Assembly (NCBI RefSeq): GCF_048403405.1 | Contig: NZ_CP183129.1 | Strand: one strand, 5' to 3' | DNA: 64,000 nucleotides | Source of the DNA: Escherichia coli | Lineage (GTDB): Bacteria > Pseudomonadota > Gammaproteobacteria > Enterobacterales > Enterobacteriaceae | Shown: positions 2,317-30,038 of the stretch, piece after piece | Position numbering within the stretch: the stretch's first letter is position 1 | How the letters are laid out: the number at the start of each line of letters is the position of its first letter | Program-made: the position numbers and the translations under genes | Notes under the pieces: generated by a model | What the model saw: the letters and a program-made list of their open reading frames with translations, nothing else | Database searches by the model: none | Told to the model about the DNA's origin: nothing

Positions 2317-2685
2317 TCAGGCGGCTTTGATAGTCATATCATCTGAATCAAATATTCCTGATGTATCGATATCGGTAATTCTTATTCCTTCACTACCATC
2401 CATTGGAGGCCATCCTTCCTGACCATTTCCATCATTCCAGTCGAACTCACACACAACACCATATGCATTTAAGTCGCTTGAAATTGCTATAAGCAGAGCA
2501 TGTTGCGCCAGCATGATTAATACAGCATTTAATACAGAGCCGTGTTTATTGAGTCGGTATTCAGAGTCTGACCAGAAATTATTAATCTGGTGAAGTTTTT
2601 CCTCTGTCATTACGTCATGGTCGATTTCAATTTCTATTGATGCTTTCCAGTCGTAATCAATGATGTATTTTTTGATGTTTGACAT
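2317..2685 (-). CDS. Hypothetical early-left protein (122 aa)
   Basis: ORF track; preceded on the minus strand by a hairpin plus T-run (about 2706..2740) consistent with an N-antiterminated terminator. Confidence 0.5.
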   Translation of the reverse strand: MSNIKKYIIDYDWKASIEIEIDHDVMTEEKLHQINNFWSDSEYRLNKHGSVLNAVLIMLAQHALLIAISSDLNAYGVVCEFDWNDGNGQEGWPPMDGSEGIRITDIDTSGIFDSDDMTIKAA

Positions 2686-2867: not shown

Positions 2868-3068
2868 TCAGGCAGCCTTGTTGTTCAGTTTACCAAGTTC
2901 TCTGGCAATCATTGCCGTCGTTCGTATTGCCCATTTATCGACATATTTCCCATCTTCCATTACAGGAAACATTTCTTCAGGCTTAACCATGCATTCCGAT
3001 TGCAGCTTGCATCCATTGCATCGCTTGAATTGTCCACACCATTGATTTTTATCAATAGTCGTAGTCAT
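2868..3068 (-). CDS. Small Cys-rich (CxxC...CxxC) putative zinc-binding protein (66 aa)
   Basis: ORF track; motif CGQFKRCNGCKLQSEC; typical small early-left phage protein. Confidence 0.45.
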   Translation of the reverse strand: MTTTIDKNQWCGQFKRCNGCKLQSECMVKPEEMFPVMEDGKYVDKWAIRTTAMIARELGKLNNKAA

Positions 3069-3146
3069 ACGGATAGTCCTGGTATTGTTCCATCACATCC
3101 TGCGGATGCTCTTCGAACTCTTCAAATTCTTCTTCCATATATCACC

Positions 3147-3473
3147 TCAAATAAGTGGTTTGCTGCCTAATTTCATTTTCTGGCTACCAACACAAGTCAC
3201 ACCCATTTCACTACGTGGCTTGCTGTACCATGTGCGCTGATTCTTGCGATCAATACGTTGCAGGTTGCTTTCAATCTGTTCGTGGTATTCAGCCAGCACT
3301 GTAAGGTCTATAGGATTCAGTGCGCTTTCTACTCGTGATTTCGGTTTGCGATTCAGCGAGAGAATAGGGCGGTTAACTGGTTTTGCGCTTACCCCAACCA
3401 ACAGGGGATTTGCTGCTTTCCATTTAGCCTGTTTCTCTGCGCGACGTTCGCGGCGGCGTGTTTGTGCATCCAT
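3147..3473 (-). CDS. N: Antitermination protein N (lambda-type, 108 aa)
   Basis: MDAQTRRRERRAEKQA.WKAANPLLVGVSAKPVNRPILSLNRKPKSRVESALNPIDLTVLAEY... matches lambda N almost residue for residue (from memory); nutL lies upstream. Confidence 0.9.
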   Translation of the reverse strand: MDAQTRRRERRAEKQAKWKAANPLLVGVSAKPVNRPILSLNRKPKSRVESALNPIDLTVLAEYHEQIESNLQRIDRKNQRTWYSKPRSEMGVTCVGSQKMKLGSKPLI

Positions 3474-3671
3474 CTGGATTCTCCTGTCAGTTAGCTTTGG
3501 TGATTGGATGGCCGGCGCTGAACCCCGGCTTACTGGTTAGAGCGCCCGCACTACCAGTGACGCTGTCTTGAGGCGCAGATTGGTTACTGCTTGCCATGAG
3601 CGCTGTTTATACATTGGTCGAGCATCAGCCTGCTCATTCATCCAATCCCAAAGCCTTCTGCTTTGAATGCT

Positions 3672-3702
3672 GCCCTTCTTCAGGGCTTAATTTTTAAGAG
3701 CC
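3672..3702 (-). promoter_or_regulatory. nutL (boxA GCTCTTAA plus boxB GCCCTGAAGAAGGGC hairpin)
   Basis: Minus-strand reading gives GCTCTTAAAAATTAAGCCCTGAAGAAGGGC, the lambda nutL arrangement, between pL and N. Confidence 0.75.
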
Positions 3703-3743
3703 TCACCTTCATGGTGGTCAGTGCGTCCTGCTGATGTGCTTAG

Positions 3744-3804
3744 TATCACCGCCAGTGGTATTTATGTCAACACCGCCAGAGATAATTTATCACCGTAGAT
3801 GGTT
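3744..3804 (-). promoter_or_regulatory. oL1-oL2-oL3 operators with leftward promoter pL
   Basis: Three 17-bp cI operator sites TATCACCGCCAGTGGTA, CAACACCGCCAGAGATA, TATCACCGTAGATGGTT with lambda spacing. Confidence 0.8.
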
Positions 3805-3960
3805 ATTTGTATGTTTTTTATATAGATTTATTTTTTGCAGGGTTGTGTGGATTGGGAAGGTGATCGAGAGATCTGAATTGCGATGTTTAGTGAGTTGTAT
3901 CTATTAATTTTGAAATAAATACAATTGGTTATGCGTTTTTTGGGGGGGCGTTAGGCAAAG

Positions 3961-3986
3961 AAAACCCGGCGCTGAGGCCGGGTTAT
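3961..3986 (-). terminator. timm-like rho-independent terminator ending the cI operon
   Basis: Hairpin AACCCGGCctcaGCGCCGGGTT followed on the minus strand by TTTTCTTTG; same sequence as the lambda terminator after rexB (from memory). Confidence 0.7.
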
Positions 3987-3993
3987 GTAGGCA

Positions 3994-4095
3994 TTATGCG
4001 GCTTTTTTGGTGTGTGCTGACGAGCGAGCCAGAATCTCGTTGATGAGAGATCTCAGGGTCATTGCATCTTTGTGCAGAGTGGACATGGTTTTCAT
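3994..4095 (-). CDS. 33-aa basic peptide ORF (MKTMSTLHKDAMTLRSLINEILARSSAHTKKAA), second gene of the cI-downstream cassette
   Basis: ATG with GAGG SD 7 nt upstream; stop 7 nt before the timm hairpin; under the ORF-track size cutoff; not a known lambda gene. Confidence 0.4.
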   Translation of the reverse strand: MKTMSTLHKDAMTLRSLINEILARSSAHTKKAA

Positions 4096-4164
4096 TGCGT
4101 TTCCTCGGTTTATTTTATGGTACTAGCCTAGTTCAAATAGACTATATGAAATCTTGATTTACTA

Positions 4165-4545
4165 TTAAGGCCATTGGGTTGGTGGAAGATCGTGGGTTTT
4201 TATCTGCGTATTTGCTTCCACACATTTATCATAGTCTAATTTCTCTACAGCAAGCAATAGTGATTCAGCATACATCAATCCTTGTTTGATGTTCATAACA
4301 TTTATGCTTGCACTTGCGGCATCCATATCCTTTGCTGTCTCTACCATGTGCTCAAAGCTTTGAGCAATAGAGTCAACACCGTTTTTCATCCTTGTAAACA
4401 CTAATTTTAGCTCATCAAGGCTTGGATTCGTTAGATCATACATCCCATGCATTCCATGGGCTTCGAATAACTCTGACAACGATCTAAGGGCGAAGTTCAC
4501 AGAATCAATAACTTGGTCGTACTTTTTCTTATCAAGATCATTCAT
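4165..4545 (-). CDS. 126-aa acidic protein of unknown function occupying the rexA/rexB position
   Basis: ORF track; starts 66 nt downstream of the cI stop on the same strand, AAGG SD about 11 nt upstream; no TM segment or motif recognised; visibly AT-richer than cI. Confidence 0.6.
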   Translation of the reverse strand: MNDLDKKKYDQVIDSVNFALRSLSELFEAHGMHGMYDLTNPSLDELKLVFTRMKNGVDSIAQSFEHMVETAKDMDAASASINVMNIKQGLMYAESLLLAVEKLDYDKCVEANTQIKTHDLPPTQWP

Positions 4546-4611
4546 TAAAAATATAACCTTTTAACTAATTGATATTGCTGCATTTATATCAATATATGCA
4601 TTTCACATATA

Positions 4612-5328
<717 letters not shown>

Positions 5329-5335
5329 TTAAATC

Positions 5336-5401
5336 TATCACCGCGAGGGATAAATATCTAACACCGTGCGTGTTGACTATTTTACCTCTAGCGGTGATAA
5401 T
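5336..5401. promoter_or_regulatory. OR3-OR2-OR1 operators with divergent promoters pRM and pR
   Basis: TATCACCGCGAGGGATA (5336..5352), TAACACCGTGCGTGTTG (5359..5375), TACCTCTAGCGGTGATA (5383..5399); pR -35 TTGACT and -10 GATAAT overlap OR2/OR1. Confidence 0.85.
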
Positions 5402-5416
5402 AGTTGCATGTACTAA

Positions 5417-5626
<210 letters not shown>

Positions 5627-5633
5627 ATAACCC

Positions 5634-5665
5634 CGCTCTTACACATTCCAGCCCTGAAAAAGGGC
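5634..5665 (+). promoter_or_regulatory. nutR (boxA CGCTCTTAC plus boxB GCCCTGAAAAAGGGC)
   Basis: Canonical lambda nutR immediately after cro. Confidence 0.8.
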
Positions 5666-5741
5666 ATTACCAGAAACAAATCTCTATGGTTTTGCGTTTC
5701 TTTGCGAAGCCAACTCTATCTAATCATTAAGGAAATTATCT

Positions 5742-6023
5742 ATGGGTACTATTGCAACTAAAAGCAAGAAAGCGGCTCGCATCGAGTCAGCCTTGCTGAA
5801 CAAACTGGCACTGATGGGGCAGAAGACATTCGCTCGAGCAATGGGGGTTCCTGAATATCAGGTAAGCAGATGGAAGAATGGTTTCTTCTCGCAGGTAAGC
5901 ATGATGCTGGCTGTTCTGGAATATGGAATCGAAGACGATGAAATGGCTGAATTGACTAAGCGGCTTGCCAATTACCTGACAAAAGAAAAAGCCCCGAAGA
6001 ACGGCGAATTCTTCGAGGCCTGA
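5742..6023 (+). CDS. cII: CII-like transcriptional activator (93 aa)
   Basis: [25 protein letters not shown]...QVSRWK...MLAVLEYG resembles lambda CII ([24 protein letters not shown]...QISRWK...LLAVLEWG) but is clearly divergent. Confidence 0.7.
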
Positions 6024-6057: not shown

Positions 6058-6204
6058 ATGACAAAACAACTCAGTCCTTACCAGGACAAAATTCACAAAC
6101 ACATACTACGTGATCGCTTCCTGTCCAGCTTCAAGCAGCCTGGTCGATTCCTGGCTGAGTTGGAAAAAGTGAAGCTGATGCAGAAGGAGAAAGGTCATGA
6201 GTAA
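6058..6204 (+). CDS. Small ORF (48 aa) between cII and O
   Basis: ATG with AGGAG SD 6 nt upstream; stop overlaps the O start; under the ORF-track size cutoff. Confidence 0.35.
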
Positions 6205-7057
6205 TCTTGCAACCGTAACACATTTAAGGCCTTCACAACGGCCTGTGGAGCGTCGTGTGGCAGAAGTTGAAGATGGTTATACCCGTCTTGCAAATGCCCT
6301 GTATGAAGAGCTTATCGGCGCAGATTTAACGAAAAATCAGAGCAAGGTTGCCCACGCCATATGCCGTAAAACATACGGCTACGGTAAAAAGATGGATCGC
6401 ATTTCTGATAGTCAGTTAGCTCAAATTACCAGGCTGCCAAGACAGAAGGTAAACAAGGCCAAGAATGAGCTTATCGCGATGAAGGTTATCCTTCGCGAAG
6501 GCCAGCAAATCGGGCCTAACAAGAACATCGAAGAATGGCAAATCGAAGGGTGTCACTACTCTGGTGATAATGTCACTGCATTGGTGACAAAAAGTGTCAC
6601 CAAAACGGTGACAGCGCTGTCACCAAAACAGGGACACACAAAAGAAACTATTACAAAAGAAAAAAGAAATAATAAAAACACTATGTCCGAAAGTGTTCGG
6701 ACGGAGTGTGAAAAATCATCTGACCGTCACGAAGAAACCGACAAGGCATTCGAGGAAATATTCTGGTGTGCAGGCATGCGGAAAGCCGGGAAGAAAAACG
6801 CGGCTTCGGCATTCAGAACACAGTTCAGGGAATGGCGTAAAACTACCAGGGGTACGGCAAGCGAGTTTGCCACGATGCTGGCAGAAGACATCGCATGCAG
6901 GAATGGTAAGCAGTTCGGATTCGACAGGTTGTTACCATCGAGCTACCTGAACGGTCAACGCTGGAACGACGAGAAGCCAGAAACTATTCAACCACAATCC
7001 AAACCATCATCCGCAATCACCGTATCGAAAACTGGCTACGTGTTTTTCGACAGGTGA
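6197..7057 (+). CDS. O: Replication initiator, lambda O-like (286 aa)
   Basis: N-terminal half matches lambda O (DGYxRLxNxLxE...GADLTKxQxKV...KTYGxxKxMDRIxDSQLxxITxLP); contains the ori iterons internally. Confidence 0.8.
6551..6680. repeat. Origin iterons (repeated TGTCAC/GTGACA inverted-repeat units) plus adjacent A/T-rich tract inside the O gene
   Basis: GTGTCACTACTCTGGTGATAATGTCACTGCATTGGTGACAAAAAGTGTCACCAAAACGGTGACAGCGCTGTCACCAAAACAGGGACAC followed by AAAAGAAAAAAGAAATAATAAAAAC. Confidence 0.5.
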
Positions 7058-7164
7058 ACCATGAAATCAAAAATCAAATCGCTACTGGTCGCTGGTTATA
7101 ACCACGGCTGGTTAAGTATTTCGTTTGTCGATTTCTGGTTTAAAAATCTCAATCTGAGGGAATC

Positions 7165-9045
7165 ATGACACCAAGTGAACTTAGCGACCTGCTTTGGGCG
7201 CAGGTTGACAGGGTGGCTCCGCACCTGTTGCCAAACGGCAAGAAAGAGGGGCATGAGTGGGTTGCCGGTAACGTCAACGGTGACAAGGGAAACAGCCTTA
7301 AGGTCAACCTTAGCGGCAAGAAAAAATGGGCTGATTTCGCTGAGGGAGACGGCGGTGACATGCTTGATTTGTGGATGGCATGTCGTGGAATTAACCTGCA
7401 TCAGGCTATGCAGGAAGCGAAAGCCTTTCTCGGAATCAAGGATGACGATCACCATTTCGATGCCAAACGTGAGAAGAAATTCTCCAGACCTGATCGCAAG
7501 AAAATCGCCCGCTACGTTACCAGAACAGAATCCCATCTTGAGTACCTGCAATCGCGTGGCATATCGCCAGAAATCGTAAAGCGCTACGAGGTTGTCAGCG
7601 GCAAGGTGTGGAATGGAGAGCTGGAACTGGATGCTCTGGTGATTCCGTACAAACGCGATGGTGAGTTGTTGCAGGTCAAGCGAATCAGCACTGAGCGCCC
7701 GGACGGGAAGAAAGTCATTATGGCAGAAGGTGATTGCGAACCTTGTCTGTTCGGATGGCAGGCTCTGGACGCTGGCGTGAGGGCGGTTGTACTTTGCGAA
7801 GGCGAAATTGATTGTATGAGCTATGCGCAATACGGCATCTCGGCGTTATCCGTGCCGTTTGGTGGCGGGAAAGGCGCTAAACAGCAGTGGATTGAGTTTG
7901 AGTATCACAACCTCGACAGGTTTGAGGAAATATTCATCTCGATGGACGTTGATGATGTTGGTCGTGAAGCCGCAAGGGAAATCGCAAGCCGACTCGGTGA
8001 ACATCGTTGCCGTCTTGTTACTCTGCCGTACAAAGACATCAACGAATGCCTGATGAACGGTGTTACCGAGGATGAAATCTGGCAGTACATCGGCACGGCA
8101 TCCTACTTCGACCCTGAAGAACTCTACAGCGCGCGAGAGTTTTACCAGGACACTATCAACGCTTTCTACGGCAAGCAGCAGTATCTGTTTAATCCACCGT
8201 GGGAATCTCTGGTAGATAAATTCCAGTTCCGTGAGGCCGAGTTGACGCTGGTCAATGGTGTGAACGGTCACGGAAAAACGGAGGTTGTCGGGCATATGGC
8301 TCTTGAGGCAATGCGTCAGGGTGTGAAGACGTGCATCGCGTCACTTGAGCTGAAGCCTGGTATTCTCCTTAAGCGCCTTACCCGTCAGGCGACGTGCTGC
8401 AAGATGCCGCCAGTGCTGGAAATTGACTCTGCATTTAAATTTTATGACGAAAGACTTTGGGTGTTTGGCCTGACCGGAACGGCGAAAGCCGACAGGCTGA
8501 TCGAAATATTCGACTACGCTCGCCGCCGATACGGGATCCAGTTATTCATCATCGACAGCCTGATGAAATGTGGCATAGGCGACGATGACTATAACGGGCA
8601 GAAGGCGTTTGTTGACTCGATTTGCGACTTCAAAAACAAAACAAACTCCCACGTCATTCTCGTTACTCACTCGCGAAAAGGAGACAGCGAAGAAAAACCA
8701 ACCGGGAAAATGGACGTAAAAGGCTCTGGAGCGATAACAGACCTGACAGACAACCTTTTCATCATCTGGCGTAACAAGGCTCGCGAGAGAGCGTTACAGA
8801 GAGTTCAGAGTGGTGAAAAGATGTCAGAGAAGGACGAACAGCTACTGGCATCTCCGGCATCTGTTTTGATGCTTGAAAAACAACGTAACGGCGAAGGTTG
8901 GGAAGGTGGTGTCCCGTTGTTCCTTGACGAGCAATCGCACCAGTTCCTGCAACTTGAATCAGGATCGCCATATAGCTACATCGCCAATATGCCGAAATCG
9001 GAATATGACGAGGCGTGGAGACAGGAAAACGTGACGGAGTATTAA
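7165..9045 (+). CDS. Bifunctional DNA primase/helicase (T7 gp4-like; 626 aa) in place of lambda P
   Basis: Central acidic TOPRIM-like block (VVLCEGEIDCMSYAQ...ISMDVDDVGREAA) followed by Walker A GVNGHGKT and a RecA/DnaB-like C-terminal half; follows the O-like gene. Confidence 0.7.
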   Translation: MTPSELSDLLWAQVDRVAPHLLPNGKKEGHEWVAGNVNGDKGNSLKVNLSGKKKWADFAEGDGGDMLDLWMACRGINLHQAMQEAKAFLGIKDDDHHFDAKREKKFSRPDRKKIARYVTRTESHLEYLQSRGISPEIVKRYEVVSGKVWNGELELDALVIPYKRDGELLQVKRISTERPDGKKVIMAEGDCEPCLFGWQALDAGVRAVVLCEGEIDCMSYAQYGISALSVPFGGGKGAKQQWIEFEYHNLDRFEEIFISMDVDDVGREAAREIASRLGEHRCRLVTLPYKDINECLMNGVTEDEIWQYIGTASYFDPEELYSAREFYQDTINAFYGKQQYLFNPPWESLVDKFQFREAELTLVNGVNGHGKTEVVGHMALEAMRQGVKTCIASLELKPGILLKRLTRQATCCKMPPVLEIDSAFKFYDERLWVFGLTGTAKADRLIEIFDYARRRYGIQLFIIDSLMKCGIGDDDYNGQKAFVDSICDFKNKTNSHVILVTHSRKGDSEEKPTGKMDVKGSGAITDLTDNLFIIWRNKARERALQRVQSGEKMSEKDEQLLASPASVLMLEKQRNGEGWEGGVPLFLDEQSHQFLQLESGSPYSYIANMPKSEYDEAWRQENVTEY

Positions 9046-12970: not shown

Positions 12971-13045
12971 GGGTCAGTCGTATAAAGGTCATTACGGAAG
13001 GCTGTTAACCTTCTTATCGTGGTTCGAGTCCACGCTGTCCCGCCA
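12971..13045 (+). tRNA. tRNA-like gene, anticodon GUU (Asn) by manual fold; one T:T mismatch in the acceptor stem
   Basis: Manual cloverleaf: acceptor GGGTCAG/CTGTCCC, anticodon stem GAAGG/CCTTC with loop CTGTTAA, T-arm CGTGG-TTCGAGT-CCACG, discriminator G, encoded CCA. Confidence 0.45.
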
Positions 13046-13050
13046 AATAT

Positions 13051-13126
13051 GCTGGTTTAGCTCCAATGGTAGAGCAGTCGCCTTGTAAGCGAATGGGTAG
13101 CGGTTCAAGTCCGTTAACCAGCACCA
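13051..13126 (+). tRNA. tRNA-like gene, anticodon UGU (Thr) by manual fold
   Basis: Acceptor GCTGGTT/AACCAGC (perfect), D-arm GCTC-CAATGGTA-GAGC, anticodon loop CTTGTAA, T-loop TTCAAGT, encoded CCA. Confidence 0.55.
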
Positions 13127-15832: not shown

Positions 15833-16273
15833 ATGGCGCGCCCAACAAAGTATCAAGAGGCGTACGCCGAACAGGCACGCAAACTGTGCTTGCTGGGCTA
15901 CACCGATGCAGAGCTTGCTGATTTCTTCGAAGTCAGTGAGTCAACTATTAACAAGTGGAAGCTTGATTATCCTGAGTTTTCGGAGTCCATAAAAAAGGGT
16001 AAGGCCGTCGCTGATGCAGAAGTTAGTGATCGTCTTTATCAACGCGCTATGGGCTTCGTGGCTCCAGACATCGATATTCGTGTTATTGAAAACAGAATTG
16101 TCGAAACTCCGCTTGAGAAGTATTACCCGCCTGATACAACCGCCGCCATCTTCTGGCTTAAGAACCGACAGAAGGATAAATGGCGCGATAAGGTTGATCA
16201 CGAGCTAACAGGCAAAGACGGCGGCGCAATCCAGATTGAAACATCACCGATGAGCACTCTATTCGGAAAATGA
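15833..16273 (+). CDS. Terminase small subunit (Sf6 gp1-like, 146 aa)
   Basis: C-terminus GKDGGAIQIETSPMSTLFGK matches Sf6 TerS (from memory); overlaps the TerL start. Confidence 0.8.
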   Translation: MARPTKYQEAYAEQARKLCLLGYTDAELADFFEVSESTINKWKLDYPEFSESIKKGKAVADAEVSDRLYQRAMGFVAPDIDIRVIENRIVETPLEKYYPPDTTAAIFWLKNRQKDKWRDKVDHELTGKDGGAIQIETSPMSTLFGK

Positions 16274-17685
16274 CCTCGATTAATCCTATCTTTGAACCGT
16301 TCATTGAGGCGCATCGCTATAAAGTCGCCAAAGGCGGTCGAGGTAGCGGTAAGTCATGGGCAATCGCGAGGTTGCTTGTTGAGGCGGCACGTCGGCAGCC
16401 TGTGCGTATTCTTTGCGCTCGTGAACTGCAAAACAGTATCAGCGATTCGGTAATCCGACTGCTTGAAGACACCATAGAGCGGGAAGGGTATTCGGCCGAG
16501 TTTGAAATTCAGCGTTCCATGATTCGTCATCTCGGAACAAATGCTGAATTCATGTTCTATGGCATCAAAAACAACCCGACAAAGATTAAATCGCTCGAAG
16601 GCATTGATATCTGCTGGGTGGAAGAAGCGGAAGCGGTAACGAAGGAATCATGGGATATCCTGATTCCAACCATCCGTAAGCCGTTCTCTGAAATATGGGT
16701 GAGCTTTAACCCGAAGAACATCCTCGACGATACCTATCAGCGATTCGTCGTAAATCCTCCTGATGATATTTGTCTGCTGACGGTGAACTACACCGACAAC
16801 CCGCACTTTCCTGAAGTTCTCCGTCTGGAGATGGAAGAGTGCAAACGCAGAAATCCGACACTGTATCGTCACATCTGGCTGGGTGAGCCGGTAAGCGCAA
16901 GTGATATGGCAATCATCAAACGTGAATGGCTTGAAGCTGCAACCGATGCGCACAAGAAACTCGGATGGAAAGCGAAAGGCGCTGTTGTTTCTGCGCATGA
17001 CCCGTCAGATACAGGGCCAGATGCTAAAGGTTATGCATCGCGTCACGGTTCGGTAGTTAAGCGCATTGCCGAAGGTCTGCTGATGGACATCAACGAGGGT
17101 GCTGACTGGGCTACTTCGCTGGCGATTGAAGACGGCGCTGACCATTACCTGTGGGATGGCGATGGTGTCGGTGCAGGGCTACGCAGACAGACAACGGAAG
17201 CATTCTCCGGCAAGAAAATTACCGCCACGATGTTCAAGGGCAGCGAATCGCCATTCGATGAAGATGCGCCTTATCAGGCCGGAGCATGGGCTGATGAAGT
17301 CGTACAGGGCGACAACGTTCGCACTATTGGCGATGTTTTCCGCAATAAGCGAGCGCAATTCTATTACGCGCTGGCTGACAGGCTGTATCTGACATATCGG
17401 GCGGTTGTCCACGGTGAGTATGCAGACCCCGACGACATGCTGAGCTTCGACAAAGAAGCGATAGGCGAGAAGATGCTGGAGAAGCTGTTTGCAGAACTGA
17501 CGCAGATTCAGCGCAAATTCAATAACAACGGGAAGCTGGAGCTAATGACTAAGGTCGAAATGAAGCAGAAGCTCGGTATTCCATCTCCTAACCTGGCTGA
17601 TGCGCTGATGATGTGTATGCATTGCCCAGAGTCGGCTGCGCAACCCGACTATTCCAGTTACTCAATTCCTTGTGGTGTAGGTTGA
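16270..17685 (+). CDS. Terminase large subunit (471 aa)
   Basis: Walker A KGGRGSGKSW near the N-terminus; size and position typical of P22/Sf6-like TerL. Confidence 0.9.
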   Translation: MTSINPIFEPFIEAHRYKVAKGGRGSGKSWAIARLLVEAARRQPVRILCARELQNSISDSVIRLLEDTIEREGYSAEFEIQRSMIRHLGTNAEFMFYGIKNNPTKIKSLEGIDICWVEEAEAVTKESWDILIPTIRKPFSEIWVSFNPKNILDDTYQRFVVNPPDDICLLTVNYTDNPHFPEVLRLEMEECKRRNPTLYRHIWLGEPVSASDMAIIKREWLEAATDAHKKLGWKAKGAVVSAHDPSDTGPDAKGYASRHGSVVKRIAEGLLMDINEGADWATSLAIEDGADHYLWDGDGVGAGLRRQTTEAFSGKKITATMFKGSESPFDEDAPYQAGAWADEVVQGDNVRTIGDVFRNKRAQFYYALADRLYLTYRAVVHGEYADPDDMLSFDKEAIGEKMLEKLFAELTQIQRKFNNNGKLELMTKVEMKQKLGIPSPNLADALMMCMHCPESAAQPDYSSYSIPCGVG

Positions 17686-17686
17686 T

Positions 17687-19885
17687 ATGGCAGAAAAAAA
17701 GATGACTGACTGGCATCGCAAGGTGCTGTGCAACTTTGATAATGCCTGGTCAGCAACGCAGGATATGCGTGAGCAGATTATTGAGGCTCAACGTTTCGTC
17801 CGGGTGTCCGGCGCACAGTGGGAAGGCAGCACAAACGCTGGTTACTCATTTGATGAAGGCAGGTTTGAGCATTACCCGCGTTTTGAACTGAATAAGATTG
17901 CCCGTGAATGTGATCGCATCATTGGCGAGTATCGACAGAATCGCATCAGCGTTAAATTCAGGCCGAAGGACGACAAGGCATCGGAAGCGTTAGCCGAAAA
18001 GATGAACGGCAAATTCCGCGCTGACTATCAGGAAACATCCGGTGGCGAAGCGTGTGATAACGCATTTGATGATGCCGTAACGGGCGGATTCGGTTGTTTC
18101 CGCATGTGTGCCGATTACGAAGATGAAATGGATCCGAGTAACGAGCAGCGCCGCATCAGCCTTCTCCCGGTTTACGACCCAGCGACATGCGTCTTCTTCG
18201 ATCAGGACAGCAAGCAATATGACCGCTCTGATGCTATGTGGGCTATGGAAATGTTCTCCATGACGCCTAAAGCGTTCGAGGCTGAATACCCTGATTCCAT
18301 CGCGGCAAGCCTTCCTCGTGATGACACTGGCACTCAATATGACTGGTCAACGCCAGATGCCATCTATGTTGGGCGCTACTACGAAGTTCGCATAGAGAAG
18401 GTGAAGCTCACGGCATGGCGCAACCCTGTTAGCGGAGAAACGGCAATCTATGATGAAGATCAAATCAAAGATATTGTCGATGAGCTAACCGATGGTGCAT
18501 TCGAACTGATTGGCGAGCGAACGGTGAAGAAACGCCGAGTTTATTGCGGTCTTCTGTCTGGCGCTGAATGGCTGGAAGAACCGAAGCGTATTCCGGGCGA
18601 ACATATTCCTCTCATCCCGGTATATGGGCGTCGTTCATTTGTTGATAATCAGGAGCGAATCGAAGGCCACGCAGCAAAAGCGATGGATGCACAGCGTCTT
18701 GAGAACCTGATGGTTTCCATGATTGCAGATAACGCCACTCAGGCTGGCGGTGATGGCATTCCTATCGTGGATGTTGATTTCATTCCCGGCCCATTAATGA
18801 ATCACTGGGCAGAGAGGAATAAGAAAAGACCTGCAGTTCTTCCCATGACCAGCAAGAAGGACAAAAACGGAACGGTCATTTCAGAGGCTCAGGTTGCTGG
18901 CTGGACACCTCCGACACAAATGCCTCCTGCTCTTGCCGGGCTATTGCAGTACACCGGAACGGCTATTCAGCAAATTACAGGTGCGTCGCAGCTTGAGAAC
19001 ATGCCGAGCAACGTCGCTACCGATACCGTTGATAGCATCTTTAACCGGATGGACACGCAGTCCTATATCTACATGGACAACATGGCTAAATCCATGCGCC
19101 GTGCTGGCGTCGTGTGGCTTTCTATGGCGCGTGAGGTCTATGGCAGTGATACGCCGATGCGTATCGTTAATGAGGACGGCAGCGATGACGTGGCGCTGAT
19201 GACTGGTGAAGTGGTTGACCGTCAGACAGGGCAGGTTATCGCGCTTAATGACCTTTCGCAGGGTAACTATGAAGTGACTGTCGATGTTGGTCTGTCGTTC
19301 GCTACTCGCCGTGATGCAACGGTTAAGTCGTTACTTTCCATGCTGGCACTTATCCCGCCCGGAACGCCGAAACACGACCTTGTATCGTCGATGATCCTCG
19401 ATAATATGGACGGCGAAGGGATGGACGACCTTAAAGAATACAACCGCAATCAGTTGCTTCTGTCTGGAGTTATCAAGCCGAGAACGCCAGAAGAACAGCA
19501 GATGGTTGAGCAGGCGAAACAACAACAGGCCAGTCAGCCAGATCCGGCTATGGTTGCAGCGCAAGGTCAGCTTCTTGCTGGTCAGGCTGAATTGCAGAAA
19601 GCGCAGAACGAACAGGCAGCCATTCAGGTTAAAGCATTCCAGGCACAGACTGATGCTCAGGTTGCAGCGGCAAATGTTGTGAAAATCCTCGCATCTGCCG
19701 ATAGCCAGCAGAAATCTGATATCCGCGAGGCTCTGAAACTGCTCGGACAGTTCCAGCAACAGCAAGGAGACAATGCCCGTGCTGATGCAGAGCTTGTCCT
19801 GAAAAGTCAGGCACAGGGCCATGCGCAGCGCATGGACATCAGCAGCATCCTGCAAAAATCAACTCAGCAACAACCACAGCAGTAA
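17687..19885 (+). CDS. Portal protein (P22 gp1-like, 732 aa)
   Basis: Multiple blocks shared with P22 portal (GEHIPLIPVYG, PEEQQMVEQAKQQQASQPDPAMVAAQGQLLAGQAELQKAQNEQ, RMDISSILQ). Confidence 0.9.
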   Translation: MAEKKMTDWHRKVLCNFDNAWSATQDMREQIIEAQRFVRVSGAQWEGSTNAGYSFDEGRFEHYPRFELNKIARECDRIIGEYRQNRISVKFRPKDDKASEALAEKMNGKFRADYQETSGGEACDNAFDDAVTGGFGCFRMCADYEDEMDPSNEQRRISLLPVYDPATCVFFDQDSKQYDRSDAMWAMEMFSMTPKAFEAEYPDSIAASLPRDDTGTQYDWSTPDAIYVGRYYEVRIEKVKLTAWRNPVSGETAIYDEDQIKDIVDELTDGAFELIGERTVKKRRVYCGLLSGAEWLEEPKRIPGEHIPLIPVYGRRSFVDNQERIEGHAAKAMDAQRLENLMVSMIADNATQAGGDGIPIVDVDFIPGPLMNHWAERNKKRPAVLPMTSKKDKNGTVISEAQVAGWTPPTQMPPALAGLLQYTGTAIQQITGASQLENMPSNVATDTVDSIFNRMDTQSYIYMDNMAKSMRRAGVVWLSMAREVYGSDTPMRIVNEDGSDDVALMTGEVVDRQTGQVIALNDLSQGNYEVTVDVGLSFATRRDATVKSLLSMLALIPPGTPKHDLVSSMILDNMDGEGMDDLKEYNRNQLLLSGVIKPRTPEEQQMVEQAKQQQASQPDPAMVAAQGQLLAGQAELQKAQNEQAAIQVKAFQAQTDAQVAAANVVKILASADSQQKSDIREALKLLGQFQQQQGDNARADAELVLKSQAQGHAQRMDISSILQKSTQQQPQQ

Positions 19886-19975
19886 TTAACCCATAACGTG
19901 CAATGGCTGTCTTTATGAGGCCTGGCACCCTATTGCCTTCCGATGGGCTGAACATCGAGTAAACAGGGGTAACAA

Positions 19976-20869
19976 ATGGACCAGATGGCAGAAAACACAC
20001 CAGAAGTTGAAATCGAAACCGACGCGTCAGAGCAGATTCCTGATGATGTCGAACTGGCTGAAGAAGTCGAAACAGCAGATGGCAGTGAGTCCTCCGGCAA
20101 TGATGCAGAGGAAGCTACTGAAACTGATGACGACGAATCAGAACAGGAATTCTACTTTGGTGACGAAAAGCTGGATTCGCCAACCAGCGAAGATGGAGCT
20201 GAGCATGGACTGGTAAAACACTTGCGCAAGACGATTAAAGAGAAAGACCGCGAGCTGAAAGAGCTGATGCGTCAGTCTCAGAAACCCGTCGAGCAGCAGC
20301 CGGTAATCACTCAACCACCGCGAATGCCAAAACTGGACGATGAGGACATCGGTTTCGATGAAGAAATCTACCAGCAACGCATGGCTAAGTGGGCAGAGGA
20401 TAACGGCAAATACCAGGAGCAAGTACGAGAGCGGAAACGAGAGGAAGAGGCGCGTACCGCAACGCTTCAGCAGAAAGCAGCCAATTACATGCAGAGAGTA
20501 AAAGCACTGAAAGTGGCTGGCTACCAGGATGCAGAACAGGCTGTACGCGAAGATGTTCCTGTTCATATTCAGGACATGATCCTTCTTGAGTCAGAGAAGC
20601 CGGAAATCGTTGTTCTGGCGCTTGGTCGCAACGCTGAACTGCGCAAGCAACTGGCAGAAGCTACCAACCCCGTAGCAATTGGTCGTCTGCTGGAACGTAT
20701 CGAATCTAAGGCCAGAATCATGCCAAAAGCAAAAACCACGGCAGCCACAACCCCGACAGTTAAGGGGAGCAACGGCGCAGTAATCAACAACCTCGACAAA
20801 TTGAAAGCCAAGGCGCTGGAAACTGGTGACTGGACGCCGTATTTCGCCGCTAAAAAGGCAAAAAAATAA
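19976..20869 (+). CDS. Scaffolding protein (297 aa)
   Basis: Acidic, helical, between portal and coat as in P22 gp8. Confidence 0.75.
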   Translation: MDQMAENTPEVEIETDASEQIPDDVELAEEVETADGSESSGNDAEEATETDDDESEQEFYFGDEKLDSPTSEDGAEHGLVKHLRKTIKEKDRELKELMRQSQKPVEQQPVITQPPRMPKLDDEDIGFDEEIYQQRMAKWAEDNGKYQEQVRERKREEEARTATLQQKAANYMQRVKALKVAGYQDAEQAVREDVPVHIQDMILLESEKPEIVVLALGRNAELRKQLAEATNPVAIGRLLERIESKARIMPKAKTTAATTPTVKGSNGAVINNLDKLKAKALETGDWTPYFAAKKAKK

Positions 20870-20887
20870 CCTATCGGAGCATTAAGC

Positions 20888-22147
20888 ATGGCTAACCAAT
20901 TAGCAAAAGACCTTGAAATCATGTTCGAAAACTACGTTGAAGGCTTTGAGGCCGCCTGCGTAGTTTCCCGTAACGCTAAAAAATTCCGTCCCGGTGATAC
21001 AGCAATGCAGCGAGCAGGTGATGTTCTGTATCGTCCGCAGCATTACCACATGAACATTGAGGAGGGCTTGGACCTCAGCGAAAAAACACCAACAGCACTG
21101 GTTCAGCGCCTTGTTCCTTCTGTGTTCAAGGAGCCGAAAAACATTCTGTACACTCTGGATGCGCGTGAAATGCGTGACCCGGAACATAAAACTGAAGCTG
21201 GTCGAGCCGCAGGTATGCGCCTTGCTGCACAGATTGACTCTGACCTGATTTCCATGGTCACGCAGCGTGCTACTAACGTGGTCGCAATTCCTGCCTCAGA
21301 AAATGGCTCACGGGGCCTTGCCTTGTGGAATGGTGCGGCAGATATTGATGCCACCATGACGGCGATTGGTGTACCTCAGGGTATCAACCGTCGCTCTTTC
21401 TGGAACCCATTCAACTACAAAGACCTTGCTGGCGAGCTTGGTCACCGTGCCTACGCTCAGGGCGCAACCCTGACAGCATACGAAAAAGCGCAGATCCCTC
21501 CGGTTGCTTCCTTTGATAGCTACAAGACCGATATTTCCGGTCGATTACCGGCAGGAAGCACTGAAACCTTGACAGTATCAAATCAACCTGAACACAAGGT
21601 TGAAGCGAAAGATTCAAATGGCATGCCTGTTGATAACCGACAGGGGACCATTACGGTATCTGCTAAAGGCTTGCAGGTTGGCGATGCGTTTACCATCGCA
21701 GGTGTGAATTCCGTACACCAGATCACCAAAGATACCACCGGGCAGCCGCAGGTATTCCGCGTTCTGGCAGTAGACACAGCAGGAACCACCGTAACAATCT
21801 CTCCAAAGATTCTCCCTGTTGGAAATACTGATGTTGCGAGTCGTCCATATGCAAACGTCTATGCCAAACCGGCAGAATCAGCAGCAATCACCATTCTCAA
21901 CAAGAACGCAGCACCGGCTAACCTATTCTGGGCTGATGGTTCTGTTGAACTGATGTACGGAAAACTGGCATTCCCGACTGGTCAGGGGCCACAGGTAATG
22001 ACAGCAACCACCGAGCAGGGCGCTACGCTGATCATGTCTTACTCCTTCGACCACATCAAAGGCGTAACCACTGCTCGTTTCACCACTCTGTACGGTTGCT
22101 CTGTACTGGTTCCTGAATATACGGGCATCGTTATTGCCGGGCAGTAA
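20888..22147 (+). CDS. Major capsid (coat) protein (419 aa)
   Basis: Position and size as in P22/Sf6 coat; followed by a hairpin. Confidence 0.8.
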   Translation: MANQLAKDLEIMFENYVEGFEAACVVSRNAKKFRPGDTAMQRAGDVLYRPQHYHMNIEEGLDLSEKTPTALVQRLVPSVFKEPKNILYTLDAREMRDPEHKTEAGRAAGMRLAAQIDSDLISMVTQRATNVVAIPASENGSRGLALWNGAADIDATMTAIGVPQGINRRSFWNPFNYKDLAGELGHRAYAQGATLTAYEKAQIPPVASFDSYKTDISGRLPAGSTETLTVSNQPEHKVEAKDSNGMPVDNRQGTITVSAKGLQVGDAFTIAGVNSVHQITKDTTGQPQVFRVLAVDTAGTTVTISPKILPVGNTDVASRPYANVYAKPAESAAITILNKNAAPANLFWADGSVELMYGKLAFPTGQGPQVMTATTEQGATLIMSYSFDHIKGVTTARFTTLYGCSVLVPEYTGIVIAGQ

Positions 22148-22155
22148 TTTTGGTG

Positions 22156-22180
22156 GGGCTTCGGCCCCATTTTTATTGGG
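22156..22180 (+). terminator. Hairpin plus T-run after the coat gene
   Basis: GGGGCttcgGCCCC followed by ATTTTTATT. Confidence 0.4.
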
Positions 22181-22188
22181 AGAAGACA

Positions 22189-22377
22189 ATGGTACGAACA
22201 ATGCTCTATAAGCCTGGCAACATGATCACCTGTGGTCAGTTTGCTGTCGATTACATCATTGTTGATGACGAAGAAGTTAAATCTCACCTGAAAAAAGGCT
22301 GGGTGAAAACTCCTGAAGAAACCGCAACGAAGCAAAAAGTGGCTAAGGCGGAAGAAGATGGCGAAAACGAAGGGTGA
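22189..22377 (+). CDS. Small hypothetical protein (62 aa from the ATG at 22189; ORF track lists 22150)
   Basis: ATG at 22189 with GGGAGA SD 5 nt upstream, downstream of the coat hairpin. Confidence 0.4.
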   Translation: MVRTMLYKPGNMITCGQFAVDYIIVDDEEVKSHLKKGWVKTPEETATKQKVAKAEEDGENEG

Positions 22378-22819
22378 TCTCGTTCTAAAGGCTTTACGAA
22401 AAGCTGGGCTGTATTCCAATGCCACGTTGACAGATGCTGACCCTCAGGCAATTGAAGATGCCATTAATGACCTCGAAGACATGATGGCAGCATGGCAGGC
22501 GAAAGGTATCGAGCTTGGATATCAGTTTGCTGATACAGAAAACGGCATCATGCCGTTACCTGACGATGATTCAGGTATCCCTGCATGGGCAAATGATGGC
22601 GTCGCTTTGAAACTCGCTGTGCAAGTGTGCATGGATAACGTCATTCAGCCGTCAGACGCTCTCCTTACCGCTGCTGACAGTGCATATCAGACAATCTGTA
22701 TCGCTTTAACCAAAATACCACCACTTGAGCGACGAAATGACATGCCTCGCGGGGCGGGGTTAAAAAGCGCGTTTACGTGGAATCGGTTTTACATCGAGAA
22801 AGATGATCCGAGTACGTGA
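22358..22819 (+). CDS. Head completion protein (P22 gp4-like, 153 aa)
   Basis: Gene order and size. Confidence 0.6.
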   Translation: MAKTKGDLVLKALRKAGLYSNATLTDADPQAIEDAINDLEDMMAAWQAKGIELGYQFADTENGIMPLPDDDSGIPAWANDGVALKLAVQVCMDNVIQPSDALLTAADSAYQTICIALTKIPPLERRNDMPRGAGLKSAFTWNRFYIEKDDPST

Positions 22820-22828
22820 GGTGAATAA

Positions 22829-24247
22829 ATGCCGATTCAGCAACTTCCGCTTATGAAAGGTGTCGGCAAAGACTTTAGAAACGCTGACTATATCGACTAT
22901 CTGCCAGTGAATATGTTGGCTACACCCAAAGAAATCCTGAACAGCAGCGGATATCTTCGCTCATTCCCGGGCATTGCAAAACGTTCTGATGTGAACGGCG
23001 TATCGCGCGGTGTCGAGTACAACATGGCGCAGAATGCTGTTTATCGCGTTTGCGGTGGCAAGTTGTATAAGGGAGAAAGCGAGGTCGGTGATGTCGCCGG
23101 AAGTGGTCGCGTATCAATGGCGCATGGTCGAACATCTCAGGCGGTAGGCGTTAAAGGTCAACTGGTCGAGTATCGCTATGATGGCACGGTTAAAACAGTC
23201 TCAAACTGGCCTACAGACAGCGGATTCACTCAGTATGAGTTAGGTTCGGTTCGCGACATTACGCGTTTACGTGGGCGTTATGCGTGGTCAAAATACGGCA
23301 CTGATTCATGGTTTATCACTGACCTTCAAGACGAATCGCATCCTGACCGTTACAGCGCACAATATCGCGCAGAATCGCAGCCGGACGGTATCATCGGCAT
23401 CGGAACATGGCGAGACTTCATCGTCTGCTTTGGTTCATCGACGATTGAATATTTTTCCCTGACTGGGGCAACCACCGTTGGTGCCGCTTTGTATGTCGCA
23501 CAGCCATCACTGATGGTGCAGAAAGGCATTGCCGGGACTTACTGCAAAACGCCATTCGCTGATTCGTATGCGTTCATCAGCAATCCGGCAACAGGTGCGC
23601 CGTCTGTTTACATCATCGGCTCCGGTCAGGTATCACCAATCGCCAGCGCGAGCATTGAGAAAATCCTCCGCTCCTACTCTGCTGATGAACTGGCTGATGG
23701 CGTGATGGAGTCTCTACGATTTGATGCTCATGAGTTGCTGATTATCCACCTTCCGCGCCACGTCCTCGTGTACGACGCATCTTCAAGCGCCAATGGTCCG
23801 CAATGGTGTGTGTTGAAAACTGGCTTGTATGACGATGTGTACCGAGCTATCGACTTCATTTACGAAGGCAATCAGATAACGTGCGGCGATAAGCTGGAGT
23901 CCGTGACCGGGAAATTGCAGTTCGATATCAGCAGTCAGTATAGCCTTCAACAGGAACACCTGCTGTTTACTCCACTCTTCAAAGCGGATAACGCCAGAGT
24001 GTTCGACCTTGAGGTTGAATCGTCAACTGGCGTTGCGCAGTACGCCGACCGCCTTTTTCTCTCTGCAACCACTGACGGCATCAATTACGGGCGTGAGCAG
24101 ATGATTGAGCAGAATGAACCGTTCGTTTACGACAAGCGTGTTTTGTGGAAGCGAGTAGGGCGCATCAGGAAAAATGTCGGCTTCAAATTGCGCGTTATCA
24201 CGAAGTCACCTGTCACTCTGTCTGGCGCTCAGATAAGGATTGAGTAA
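22829..24247 (+). CDS. Head completion / tail hub protein (P22 gp10-like, 472 aa)
   Basis: Length equals P22 gp10 (472 aa); gene order. Confidence 0.7.
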
Positions 24248-25200
24248 TGGCTGATTCGAATCTCAATGTGCCGGTAATCATCCAAGCTACGCGGCTCGAT
24301 ACATCAGTCCTTCCACGCAATATCTTCTCGCAGTCGTATCTGCTTTACGTTATCGCACAGGGCACTGATGTTGGTAATGTGGCTAACAAAGCCAACGAGG
24401 CCGGACAGGGCGCTTATGATGCACAGGTCAGGAACGATGAGCAGGATGTCACCCTTGCAGACCATGAATCCAGAATTGAAGCTGCTGAAGCAACTCTCAT
24501 CAATCATGAACATAGAATTGCAGCAGCGGAAAGCACTCTTGCAGATCATGAAACAAGGATTACGGCTGCTGAAACAGAGCTGGCTGATCACGAGACGCGA
24601 ATTGCTGCCAATGAATCTGAGTTAGCAAACCATGATGCGCTCATAACTCAGAATACAACCGATATCGATGCACTTGATACCAGGCTCACAGCGGCAGAGG
24701 GAAGTATTTCGACGCTACAAGGCACAGTTGGTGATCACTCAACAAGAATATCTGCGCTTGAGTATGCCATCACGCGCAAGAAATCAGAGGTTGTTTACTC
24801 TGGCGTATCTGTAACCATCCCGACAGCGCCGACCAACCTTGTTAGCCTGCTGAAAACGCTCACGCCGTCATCCGGGACGTTGGCACCATTCTTCGACACT
24901 GTTAACAACAAGATGGTTGTGTTCAACGAGAACAAAACCTTGTTCTTCAAGCTGTCGATCGTCGGGACGTGGCCCAGCGGAACCGCCAACAGGTCAATGC
25001 AGCTAACCTTTTCCGGCTCTGTTCCTGACACGTTGGTCAGCAGTCGTAATGCGGCGACAACAACCGACAACATCCTGTTAGCTACGTTCTTCAGCGTGGA
25101 TAAAGACGGCTTTCTTGCCACAAATGGCAGTACGTTAACCATTCAGTCAAATGGTGCGGCGTTTACTGCCACAACCATCAAGATAATCGCGGAGCAGTAA
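24247..25200 (+). CDS. Tail needle protein (gp26-like, 317 aa) with repeated coiled-coil shaft and C-terminal extension
   Basis: Four to five tandem 14-residue repeats ([14 protein letters not shown] / [14 protein letters not shown] / [14 protein letters not shown] / [14 protein letters not shown]); gene order. Confidence 0.6.
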
Positions 25201-25655
25201 TGATTCAGTTCAAACCAACGCGAAACATCGACCTGATCGAAGCAGTCGGAAATCACCCTGACATTATTGCCGGGAGCAACAACGGTGATGGATACGACTA
25301 CAAACCTGATTGCCGTTACTTTGAGGTGAACGTGCACGGGCAGTTCGGCGGCATTGTTTACTATCAGGAGATTCAGCCGCTTACATTCGATTGCCACGCC
25401 ATGTACCTGCCAGAGATTCGCGGATTCAGCAAGGAAATCGGGCTGGCGTTCTGGCGATACATTCTGACTAACACCACCGTTCAGTGCGTCACATCGTTCG
25501 CTGCACGCAAATTCCGCCACGGGCAGATGTACTGCGCAATGATTGGCCTTAAGCGTGTAGGAACCATCAAGAAATACTTCAAAGGCGTGGATGACGTGAC
25601 GTTTTACAGCGCCACACGCGAAGAACTAATCGACTTCCTGAATCACGGGAGATAG
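25200..25655 (+). CDS. Head completion protein (P22 gp14-like, 151 aa)
   Basis: Gene order and size. Confidence 0.55.
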   Translation: MIQFKPTRNIDLIEAVGNHPDIIAGSNNGDGYDYKPDCRYFEVNVHGQFGGIVYYQEIQPLTFDCHAMYLPEIRGFSKEIGLAFWRYILTNTTVQCVTSFAARKFRHGQMYCAMIGLKRVGTIKKYFKGVDDVTFYSATREELIDFLNHGR

Positions 25656-25657
25656 CC

Positions 25658-26350: not shown

Positions 26351-26360
26351 GGGGTAATCA

Positions 26361-29614: not shown

Positions 29615-29633
29615 AAATGAACGCCAAGGAAGG

Positions 29634-30038
29634 CTATTTAATTCTCTTTTCAATGGCTGCAATTATTGCTTTTCCTGATGTTTCAGGAGATTTTGTAGCC
29701 ATATAAGACGAAAAAATCATGTCGGTCATTCTTTCATAACTTACTATTTCCCACTTAGCCAATGCATGGGACAGTTTGTAGTTGTCATCAGTTAGTGCCC
29801 TTATGGAATTTTTTAAGTGTTTATTCTCTTCTGTTAATCGCGCAATTTTTGTATCAATTTCATGTGAGCGATCTAATTCCTTAACCTGTTTCTTGAGGGC
29901 AGCTAACCCTGCATATAGTACGCAACAGGATATCCCAAGAGCGAGTACAACTATTTCTAACACACCAACCTCCTTAGTTTTGAGCAGGATACCAGATGAT
30001 AATGTGTAGTTGGAGTAGCGCGGTTGTAATGCAAGCAT
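29634..30038 (-). CDS. Membrane-anchored coiled-coil protein (134 aa from ATG 30038; alternative GTG start at 29963 with AAGGAGG SD gives 110 aa)
   Basis: One TM helix (LEIVVLALGISCCVLYAGLAAL) followed by heptad-rich coiled coil; divergent from the 30120 gene; AT-rich. Confidence 0.5.
   Translation of the reverse strand: MLALQPRYSNYTLSSGILLKTKEVGVLEIVVLALGISCCVLYAGLAALKKQVKELDRSHEIDTKIARLTEENKHLKNSIRALTDDNYKLSHALAKWEIVSYERMTDMIFSSYMATKSPETSGKAIIAAIEKRIK

Follow-up and report, generated by a model that had tools for sequence, protein, structure and literature searches.

In a 64,000-nucleotide stretch of DNA from Escherichia coli (NCBI RefSeq assembly GCF_048403405.1, contig NZ_CP183129.1), hereafter called the window, the place between the cI repressor gene and the timm terminator where phage lambda carries rexA and rexB is taken by a compact cassette of two genes, which code for an acidic protein of 126 amino acids (ORF126; ORF, open reading frame) and a basic peptide of 33 amino acids (ORF33). 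The two genes are conserved and strictly paired, and together they form an uncharacterised family that belongs to no known one. Comparative evidence strengthens the cassette as a candidate for a defence or toxin-antitoxin (TA)-like system, namely the strict pairing of the genes, their presence as the sole cargo of a plasmid, a predicted complex of the two products, and an invariant, degron-like tail on the peptide.

On the minus strand of the window, the order of the elements is cI, a spacer of 66 nucleotides (nt), ORF126, a spacer of 69 nt, ORF33, the terminator, the oL/pL region and N, with pR/oR and cro on the strand opposite to cI. The cI gene (4612..5325, minus strand, from the ORF list) encodes a lambda-type repressor of 237 amino acids, shares 97.7% DNA identity with lambda, is labelled 'LexA family protein' in RefSeq, and is the presumed upstream gene of a pRM/pRE transcript. 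When the region was compared by BLASTN with lambda 35000-38100, window 4611-5485 aligned with lambda 37226-38100 at 97.7% identity, the edge of this block next to the cassette (window 4611, lambda 37226) being the base after the cI stop codon. A second block aligned window 3647-3986 with lambda 35494-35828, and its edge (window 3986, lambda 35828) corresponds to the point where the rexB stop codon and the timm hairpin are fused. Between these breaks, the replaced segment (3987..4610, minus strand) has 624 bp for the 1397 bp of lambda rexA-rexB (35829-37225), and no rex-like sequence was found in it by the same comparison. An earlier, model-made reading of this DNA from its letters alone (the sequence-only reading) had placed the end of lambda homology at the cI stop and its return at timm, with no rex in between, and the alignment confirmed this. 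The cassette is therefore located where Rex is, in the slot between cI and timm and within the layout of the cI operon. The same reading had also called the segment richer in AT than cI, which it indeed is, the GC content being 37.5% in the cassette, 45.7% in cI and 48.2% in the whole window.

ORF126 (4165..4545, minus strand, from the ORF list; WP_021539111.1, a RefSeq 'hypothetical protein') matched the profile of PHROG 16322, a family of unknown function, from end to end (E 8.2e-89; all 126 residues on all 126 profile positions). It has an isoelectric point (pI) of 4.8, a net charge of -8, and a grand average of hydropathy (GRAVY) of -0.33. Modelled alone by AlphaFold2 with the family alignment, it was all-helical, with four helices and moderate confidence (predicted local distance difference test, pLDDT, 69.3; predicted template modelling score, pTM, 0.53). 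Two motifs run through the family, G(M/I)xG(M/L)..LxxPS(L/I)..L and QN(I/L)KQGL(L)(F/Y)AExLL; G31, P41 and L96 are invariant, and N85 and Q88 nearly so. No transmembrane (TM) segment was seen in either product of the cassette, both of which are hydrophilic, and AlphaFold2 displayed a bundle of the soluble type. The description of an acidic, helical product devoid of any recognised motif, given in the sequence-only reading, has held up by charge, by modelled helices and by empty family scans; moreover, the outcome that would have spoken against a defence module, a match to a characterised protein unrelated to defence, did not occur in the homology searches, the sole family match being PHROG 16322. 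Only designed helical proteins (E >= 1.6e-3) were retrieved when the family profile was searched against the sequences of the PDB, and literature searches for WP_021539111.1 and for the cassette found no mention of them. A HEPN-type toxin, a class with four helices and about 125 amino acids, was considered and rejected, since the conserved Rx4-6H motif is absent and neither R21 nor H30 is conserved.

ORF33 (3994..4095, minus strand; MKTMSTLHKDAMTLRSLINEILARSSAHTKKAA) is a basic helical peptide with GAGG 7 nt before its ATG, and is unannotated in RefSeq; its pI is 10.5, its net charge +3.7, and its GRAVY -0.26. The basic character, the GAGG Shine-Dalgarno sequence and the coordinates had all been given correctly in the sequence-only reading, but the distance from the stop codon of ORF33 to the called terminator stem is 9 nt rather than 7. 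Conserved in the peptide are a hydrophobic stripe (L7/A11/L14/I18/I21) and the C-terminal K-A-A, and the common pattern can be written as L(Y/H)xxAxxLxxL(I/M)xE(I/L)xxRA, followed by a variable basic stretch. Among four enterobacterial versions, 8-12 of the 33 codons differ synonymously and the second codon positions change least, while the terminal Ala-Ala is encoded across lineages by many combinations of GCC, GCA, GCT and GCG. The codon pattern indicates that conservation of ORF33 acts at the protein level and that ORF33 is a genuine gene. Both ORFs had been taken as real from the outset, and this is now supported by the end-to-end PHROG match of the one and by the finding of an ORF33-type peptide in every homologous locus examined. 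No RNA family was found in the cassette by Rfam, either in an E-value scan of positions 3000-6000 or in a gathering-threshold scan of the whole window. It is to be noted that gene-calling pipelines other than that of RefSeq do annotate an ORF33-type gene, whereas RefSeq annotates it in none of 31 cassette-bearing E. coli genomes.

The family is very small, comprising 23 clusters in a search of 5.8 billion proteins; a profile search of 1.84 billion representatives returned 24 matches at E <= 1e-3, which were mostly stand-alone proteins of about 110-134 amino acids, along with a few fragments and weak partial matches in long proteins. Homologous loci were recovered from E. coli, from a relative with 85% identity (L034/L042), from Klebsiella, Pantoea, Aeromonas phages (46%) and Xenorhabdus, and from metagenomic contigs (25-40%). 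In all 12 independent lineages, in which the large protein ranges from 25 to 86% identity, the large gene is followed by an ORF of 33-45 codons, the gap between the two being 20-85 nt, with a 4-nt overlap in a single locus (L046). The charges of the two products are opposite in every pair, all large proteins being acidic (net charge -5 to -11) and the peptides positive (+0.5 to +7.5). Some database homologs of ORF126 appear 'truncated' to 73-75 amino acids (P0021-P0023; L049:2845-3222), and these are gene-calling artefacts that start at an internal Met; in the underlying DNA, the full frame of 125 codons and the peptide gene are both intact, for which reason an analysis of these homologs as orphans was uninformative.

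The end of the peptide is strongly conserved. In 12 of 12 lineages the peptide terminates in (K/R)-A-A, with both Ala invariant and the Lys conserved at 92%, against a mean column identity of 43% for the alignment. Tails in the family include TKKAA, QKKAA, QQKAA, VKRAA, KKVA and the like, and further members in the databases have the ends KKAA, AKAA or KKVA. A frameshift in one Klebsiella record (P0062) exchanges the ...KKAA end for an extension of 47 residues, and this variant could serve as a natural tail mutant if the strain can be obtained. The degrons recognised by ClpX at the C-terminus are grouped as C-motif 1, typified by the ssrA tag AANDENYALAA, and C-motif 2, typified by the MuA end ...RRKKAI (PMC12723719). 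The family tails, ...(K/Q)(K/R)AA or KKVA, resemble a combination of the terminal Ala-Ala of ssrA and the basic run of MuA, a likeness of sequence only; the residue at position -3 of the peptide tail, however, is K/R and not L.

To model the two products together, they were joined as a fusion, ORF126-(GGGGS)6-ORF33, and submitted to AlphaFold2 with a paired alignment of 13 cognate pairs, the result being judged by pLDDT and pTM. The fusion reached a mean pLDDT of 83.8 and a pTM of 0.78, and the five models all fell within 82-84. By part, the pLDDT was 89-97 in ORF126, 96 in the core of the peptide, about 35 in the linker, and 71 in the last nine residues; the lower value of these last residues suggests that the tail of the peptide is exposed. 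Helix 1 of ORF126, which covered residues 3-29 in the protein alone, extended over residues 3-39 in the fusion. The peptide helix is predicted to complete the ORF126 bundle, and a tight 1:1 complex of the two products is the most likely arrangement by these models.

Of 5426 complete E. coli genomes, 31 contain the cassette, each as one complete chromosomal copy with at least 99.3% identity and with both ORFs intact. A search for the pair behind other cI-type repressors, as the sequence-only reading had proposed, located the cassette behind at least six different ones in IMG/VR and RefSeq loci; these comprised the lambda cI, a chimera with the C-terminal domain of lambda cI, and four others with different N-termini. 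Strains TL20 and TUM12357, whose repressors are unrelated, retain 31 nt from the 3' end of lambda cI, TAGCCAGTGGCCTGAAGAGACGTTTGGGTGA, in front of the cassette. This relic (ending ...CCAGTGGCCTGAAGAGACGTTTGGGTGA; L002:4001-4031 and L003:4001-4031, homologous to window 4612-4642) lies 3' of the stop codon of the resident repressor and directly before the cassette, and the homology between the contexts stops just past the terminator. The cI relic and the sharp end of homology together show that the block was moved by recombination from a lambda-immunity phage. The horizontal acquisition that had been surmised from base composition is thus borne out by the occurrence of the cassette, at least 99.3% identical, behind several unrelated repressors, and these comparisons indicate that the cassette is horizontally acquired and mobile. 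Three features of a moron are present in it, namely sharp homology breaks, a terminator of its own, and a deviant base composition. In 50,697 phage records, megablast of the cassette found no match, and the sole match by tblastn was Aeromonas phage AsXd-1.

Away from cI-type repressors, the pair occupies a variety of positions. The Klebsiella pair is at a prophage edge, adjoining umuDC-like genes and an invertase; in a metagenomic phage, the pair follows a head-tail connector gene inside the head-tail module; in one locus it stands beside an integrase; and in Aeromonas phage AsXd-1 and its relatives it is downstream of an 87-amino acid ORF, where the flanking genes switch strand. Two further contigs, L043 with 3119 bp and L044 with 3101 bp, represent the same circularly permuted plasmid at 100% identity; its GC content is 36.5%, and apart from the gene pair this 3.1-kb molecule codes for nothing but a Mob_Pre relaxase and a Rep3 initiator. 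The cassette is thus the only cargo of a minimal mobilisable plasmid, and the plasmid-borne homolog had no match in PLSDB. Such contexts, namely a minimal plasmid, repressors, a prophage edge, a head-tail module and an integrase, are typical of addiction or defence cargo.

The cassette ends at an intrinsic terminator (3963..3984, minus strand), identified by scan and by lambda homology, which consists of AACCCGGCCTCAGCGCCGGGTT followed by TTCTTT, is the same as the lambda timm hairpin, and lies at the downstream junction where the cassette recombined. A terminator hairpin is likewise found 3' of the peptide gene in the loci of E. coli, L034, Klebsiella, Pantoea, Aeromonas and the metagenomes, within about 50 nt of the gene in most loci and farther away in L012 and L014. 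Stems of the timm-like form ACCCGG...CCGGGT were noted in E. coli, L034, Klebsiella (L007), Pantoea (L011) and Aeromonas (window 3963-3984, L034:6566-6587, L007:5572-5598, L011:5554-5581, and L004 about 5510-5535). Considering that homology breaks off just past the hairpin, the terminator may provide microhomology for cassette exchange. On the upstream side, the 66-nt spacer between cI and ORF126 contains a perfect inverted repeat, ATTGATAT-N10-ATATCAAT (4568..4593), which moves together with the cassette and may serve as an operator; the spacer is near-identical behind two unrelated repressors, with one substitution that falls outside the inverted repeat.

No minus-strand terminator was called between cI and ORF126, and in view of the lambda paradigm, in which transcription runs from pRM/pRE to timm, co-transcription of the cassette with cI is to be expected in the lysogen; the sequence-only reading had drawn the same conclusion, which agrees with the terminator scan and with what is known of lambda. 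No consensus promoter was called in the spacer between cI and ORF126, and only weak promoter-like sites were called elsewhere, one of which (TTAATA-16-TATAGT, 4141..4168, minus strand) lies between the two ORFs by consensus match only. For the region, shuffles predict 4.3 promoter-like sites and three were called, and the site at 4141..4168 is not significant alone. The contexts that lack cI imply a promoter for the cassette. In the 85%-identical homolog L034, a terminator-like hairpin, CAGCCGCTATATGCGGCTG followed by TTTTT, is situated between the ORFs (6413-6431), and the corresponding spacers of Klebsiella (L007) and Pantoea (L011) show, by eye, weaker hairpins with a T-run that are below the cut-off of the scan. 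Inter-ORF hairpins of this kind suggest that the two genes are differentially expressed.

Taken together, the linkage of two small genes, the predicted complex, the opposite charges, the carriage by phages and a minimal plasmid, and the invariant, presumably exposed tail make a TA-like module the most economical reading. We tentatively favor such an addiction or abortive-infection (Abi) module, which is possible though short of probable, and in which the peptide would be a protease-labile neutraliser of ORF126, a role suggested by the resemblance of its tail to the C-terminal degrons of ClpX. The cassette would then be a self-contained, two-gene moron that replaced rexA-rexB, is transcribed in the lysogen from pRM/pRE, and ends at timm. 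The peptide would be made continuously, removed continuously by a protease of the AAA+ class, and would meanwhile hold ORF126 inactive. Once the supply of peptide stopped, either because the plasmid or prophage was lost or because an infecting phage shut off host gene expression, the freed ORF126 would harm the cell or the invader, and the outcome would be addiction to the element, abortive infection, or both. The lability of the peptide, the toxicity of ORF126, and the anti-phage or addiction effect are what we infer from these comparisons. A broader form of the proposal is rather doubtful, namely that the pair represents a new protease-gated, two-component family of the phages and small plasmids of Gammaproteobacteria, in which a peptide with a ClpX degron clamps an effector of a new fold, and loss of the peptide leads to Abi or to post-segregational killing.

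Several observations weigh against this assignment of roles. In type II TA systems, the antitoxin is usually the acidic product of the upstream gene and the toxin the basic product of the downstream one, a rule that would give the pair the opposite polarity, and a DNA-binding domain for autoregulation (HTH, RHH or AbrB) was not detected in either product. Pfam, NCBIfam and PADLOC scans of ORF126, ORF33 and 20 family members stayed at the level of noise, the lone weak match being DUF7373_C (E 5e-4) in one of the 20 members; fold searches, including those of PDB and BFVD, returned only generic helical bundles; and the invariant residues of ORF126 look structural, with no recognisable catalytic or toxin motif. 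The gain in AlphaFold2 confidence upon fusion could partly reflect the more diverse alignment of the fusion. The net charges of cognate partners are not significantly correlated (r = -0.40, p = 0.19), and the hydrophobic moment of the peptide does not differ significantly from that of shuffled sequences (p about 0.2). The hairpin between the ORFs of L034 would reduce expression of the peptide compared with that of ORF126, and this fits an antitoxin poorly unless the peptide has its own promoter. Lastly, a C-terminal AA is found in 19 of 288 distinct ORF tails (6.6%) among ORFs of at least 100 amino acids in the fetched loci, and the degron argument therefore rests on the invariance of the tail within a diverged family and not on its rarity. 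This frequency of AA tails is itself well above that expected from composition alone.

The order of the genes leads to the converse assignment, in which the basic peptide is the effector or toxin and ORF126 its neutraliser or chaperone, the KAA tail being needed for action on a host target or else limiting the lifetime of the peptide. The succession of neutraliser and then effector, with acidic followed by basic charge, conforms to the classical type II pattern, the hairpin in L034 would keep ORF126 in excess over the peptide, and the predicted complex fits equally well. We nevertheless regard it as distinctly unlikely, because the peptide, by the hydropathy given above, lacks the hydrophobic and membrane-active character of known small toxins, a well-folded, four-helix protein would be an unusual labile antitoxin, and the degron-like tail would sit on the supposed toxin. 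The modelled disposition of the tail, with a pLDDT of 71 against 96 in the core, bears on a different proposal, since a tail that may be exposed could be read by a third party. The pair could accordingly be a non-toxic, lysogen-expressed modulator, the peptide acting as a decoy or competitive substrate of ClpXP or another AAA+ protease, or the two genes as an anti-defence or regulatory pair; in a second form of this proposal, ORF126 would be the carrier or chaperone of the peptide. The lack of a toxin-like motif in ORF126 is in keeping with it, and so is the distribution of the pair in phages, prophages and a plasmid, all of which depend on host proteolysis of regulators. Two proteins encoded in the same early-left region of the window, Ral (...NNKAA; 2868-3068, minus strand) and a PHROG 646/DUF2528 protein (...TIKAA; 2317-2685, minus strand), also end in K-A-A. 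A modulator is, however, hard to envisage as the only cargo kept by a minimal plasmid of 3.1 kb, and profile and family searches found no similarity to a known protease adaptor or inhibitor; overall, we deem it unlikely.

The genomic slot itself, which is that of RexAB, BstA and other lysogen-expressed exclusion genes, together with the moron-type positions in other phages, would agree with a complex that acts directly on a component of the superinfecting phage without killing the host, much like prophage proteins that block virion assembly, and in which the peptide is a structural subunit. Such a function leaves both the plasmid with its sole cargo and the invariant tail unexplained, and neither product has the TM segment or signal peptide appropriate to exclusion at the envelope; its probability appears small. 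The RefSeq annotation, in which only ORF126 is called, would suit a locus with ORF126 as the single gene and the 33-codon frame as a chance ORF, an RNA element or a terminator leader. This is highly improbable, considering that the open frame, its motif and its C-terminus are kept in 12 lineages in which the DNA has diverged beyond recognition, that the substitutions are codon-like, that other pipelines do call the gene, and that Rfam recorded no match. The reading that we retain, albeit tentatively, is that of a TA-like module with the peptide as the labile partner.

The interval between cI and N is a known mosaic hotspot and hosts the Abi systems RexAB and BstA (PMC8585504); Degnan et al. 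2007, as cited in the same paper, is a source on this mosaicism. Other ORFs occupy the rex position in the wild lambda-immunity phages HK544, HK244, HK542, CL707 and mEp332, and none of them is this cassette. The sequence-only reading had implied more novelty than is warranted in this respect: replacement of rexAB as such is not new, whereas the ORF126/ORF33 family is new to the slot. With RexA-RexB of lambda, the cassette shares the slot between the cI stop and timm, the number of genes and the presumed co-transcription with cI, but it has no sequence similarity to them, and the products (126 and 33 amino acids versus 279 and 144) and the DNA (624 versus 1397 bp) are much smaller; moreover, RexB is a polytopic membrane protein, while the cassette has no membrane protein and yielded zero PADLOC matches. 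With BstA, it shares the nature of an accessory cassette that lies directly 3' of a cI-type repressor, has a rho-independent terminator of its own, and is swapped between immunity types; BstA, however, consists of one large protein and is accompanied by a DNA-based anti-BstA element, and the cassette is unrelated to BstA in sequence. Judged by homology, the cassette is neither Rex nor BstA, and it lacks the similarity that would place it in any TA or defence family tested.

Among TA systems proper, RnlA-RnlB and LsoA-LsoB are type II modules in which the toxin gene comes first and the antitoxin is protease-labile, the toxin being released upon phage-induced shut-off. Like them, the cassette consists of adjacent, co-directional genes on mobile elements, and it has a predicted complex and a small downstream partner with a degron-like end; the likeness offers a plausible link of the cassette to phage-induced shut-off. 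It differs from type II systems in having no homology to toxin or antitoxin families and no DNA-binding domain, in a peptide far smaller than the known antitoxins, and in that its toxicity is putative. An alternative logic is provided by the type VI system SocA-SocB, in which the antitoxin, as an adaptor, delivers the toxin to ClpXP; by analogy, the peptide might supply a degron in trans, and ClpXP would then remove ORF126, although there is no homology between the systems and SocA is a folded protein, not a 33-residue peptide. The CIII protein of lambda, a small, amphipathic-helix inhibitor of FtsH, is also a tiny helical phage peptide, and ORF33 could similarly present a substrate-like element to an AAA+ protease of the host. 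CIII nonetheless acts alone, is expressed from pL and not in the lysogen, and has no sequence similarity to ORF33.

The pair is a new occupant of the Rex slot and, as such, a well-defined candidate for a small system of defence or addiction that would be new; with a coding portion of about 560 bp, it can be cloned and tested easily. A specific and falsifiable handle, namely proteolytic gating, is offered by the invariant (K/R)AA tail of the 33-residue peptide. Since the peptide gene is unannotated, the pair looks like a lone 'hypothetical protein', and annotation-based screens would miss the peptide. If the protease-gated reading were true, the Rex slot would harbor toxins of a new family, whose proteinaceous antitoxin would be the smallest by far; if the pair were a harmless modulator, it would still document the use of terminator hairpins and of repressor 3' ends as junctions of cassette exchange. 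Prophage hotspots hold many comparable, uncharacterised cassettes, among which this candidate is sharply defined and cheap to test.

The surroundings of the cassette in the window are mosaic as well. Downstream, a pL-like promoter (TTGACA-17-GATACT, 3742..3770, minus strand), found by scan and by lambda homology in the oL region at the start of the N operon, precedes N (3147..3473, minus strand). On the other side, window 6197-9045 encodes an O-like initiator of 286 amino acids and a primase/helicase of 626 amino acids (PHROG 239) instead of lambda O/P; in strain QEC11-421, however, a 100% identical cassette adjoins lambda-type O/P/ren, and the difference between the two replication modules points to further mosaicism around the same immunity region. 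The prophage of the window combines its lambda immunity region with podovirus-type morphogenesis genes (16270-34907), which include those for the portal (17687-19885), the major head protein (20888-22147) and the tailspike (31491-33569). The integrase gene (33714-34907, minus strand) is located beside a tRNA-Arg(CCT) gene (35033-35107), and two adjacent tRNA genes, Asn-GTT and Thr-TGT (12971-13126), lie inside the prophage.

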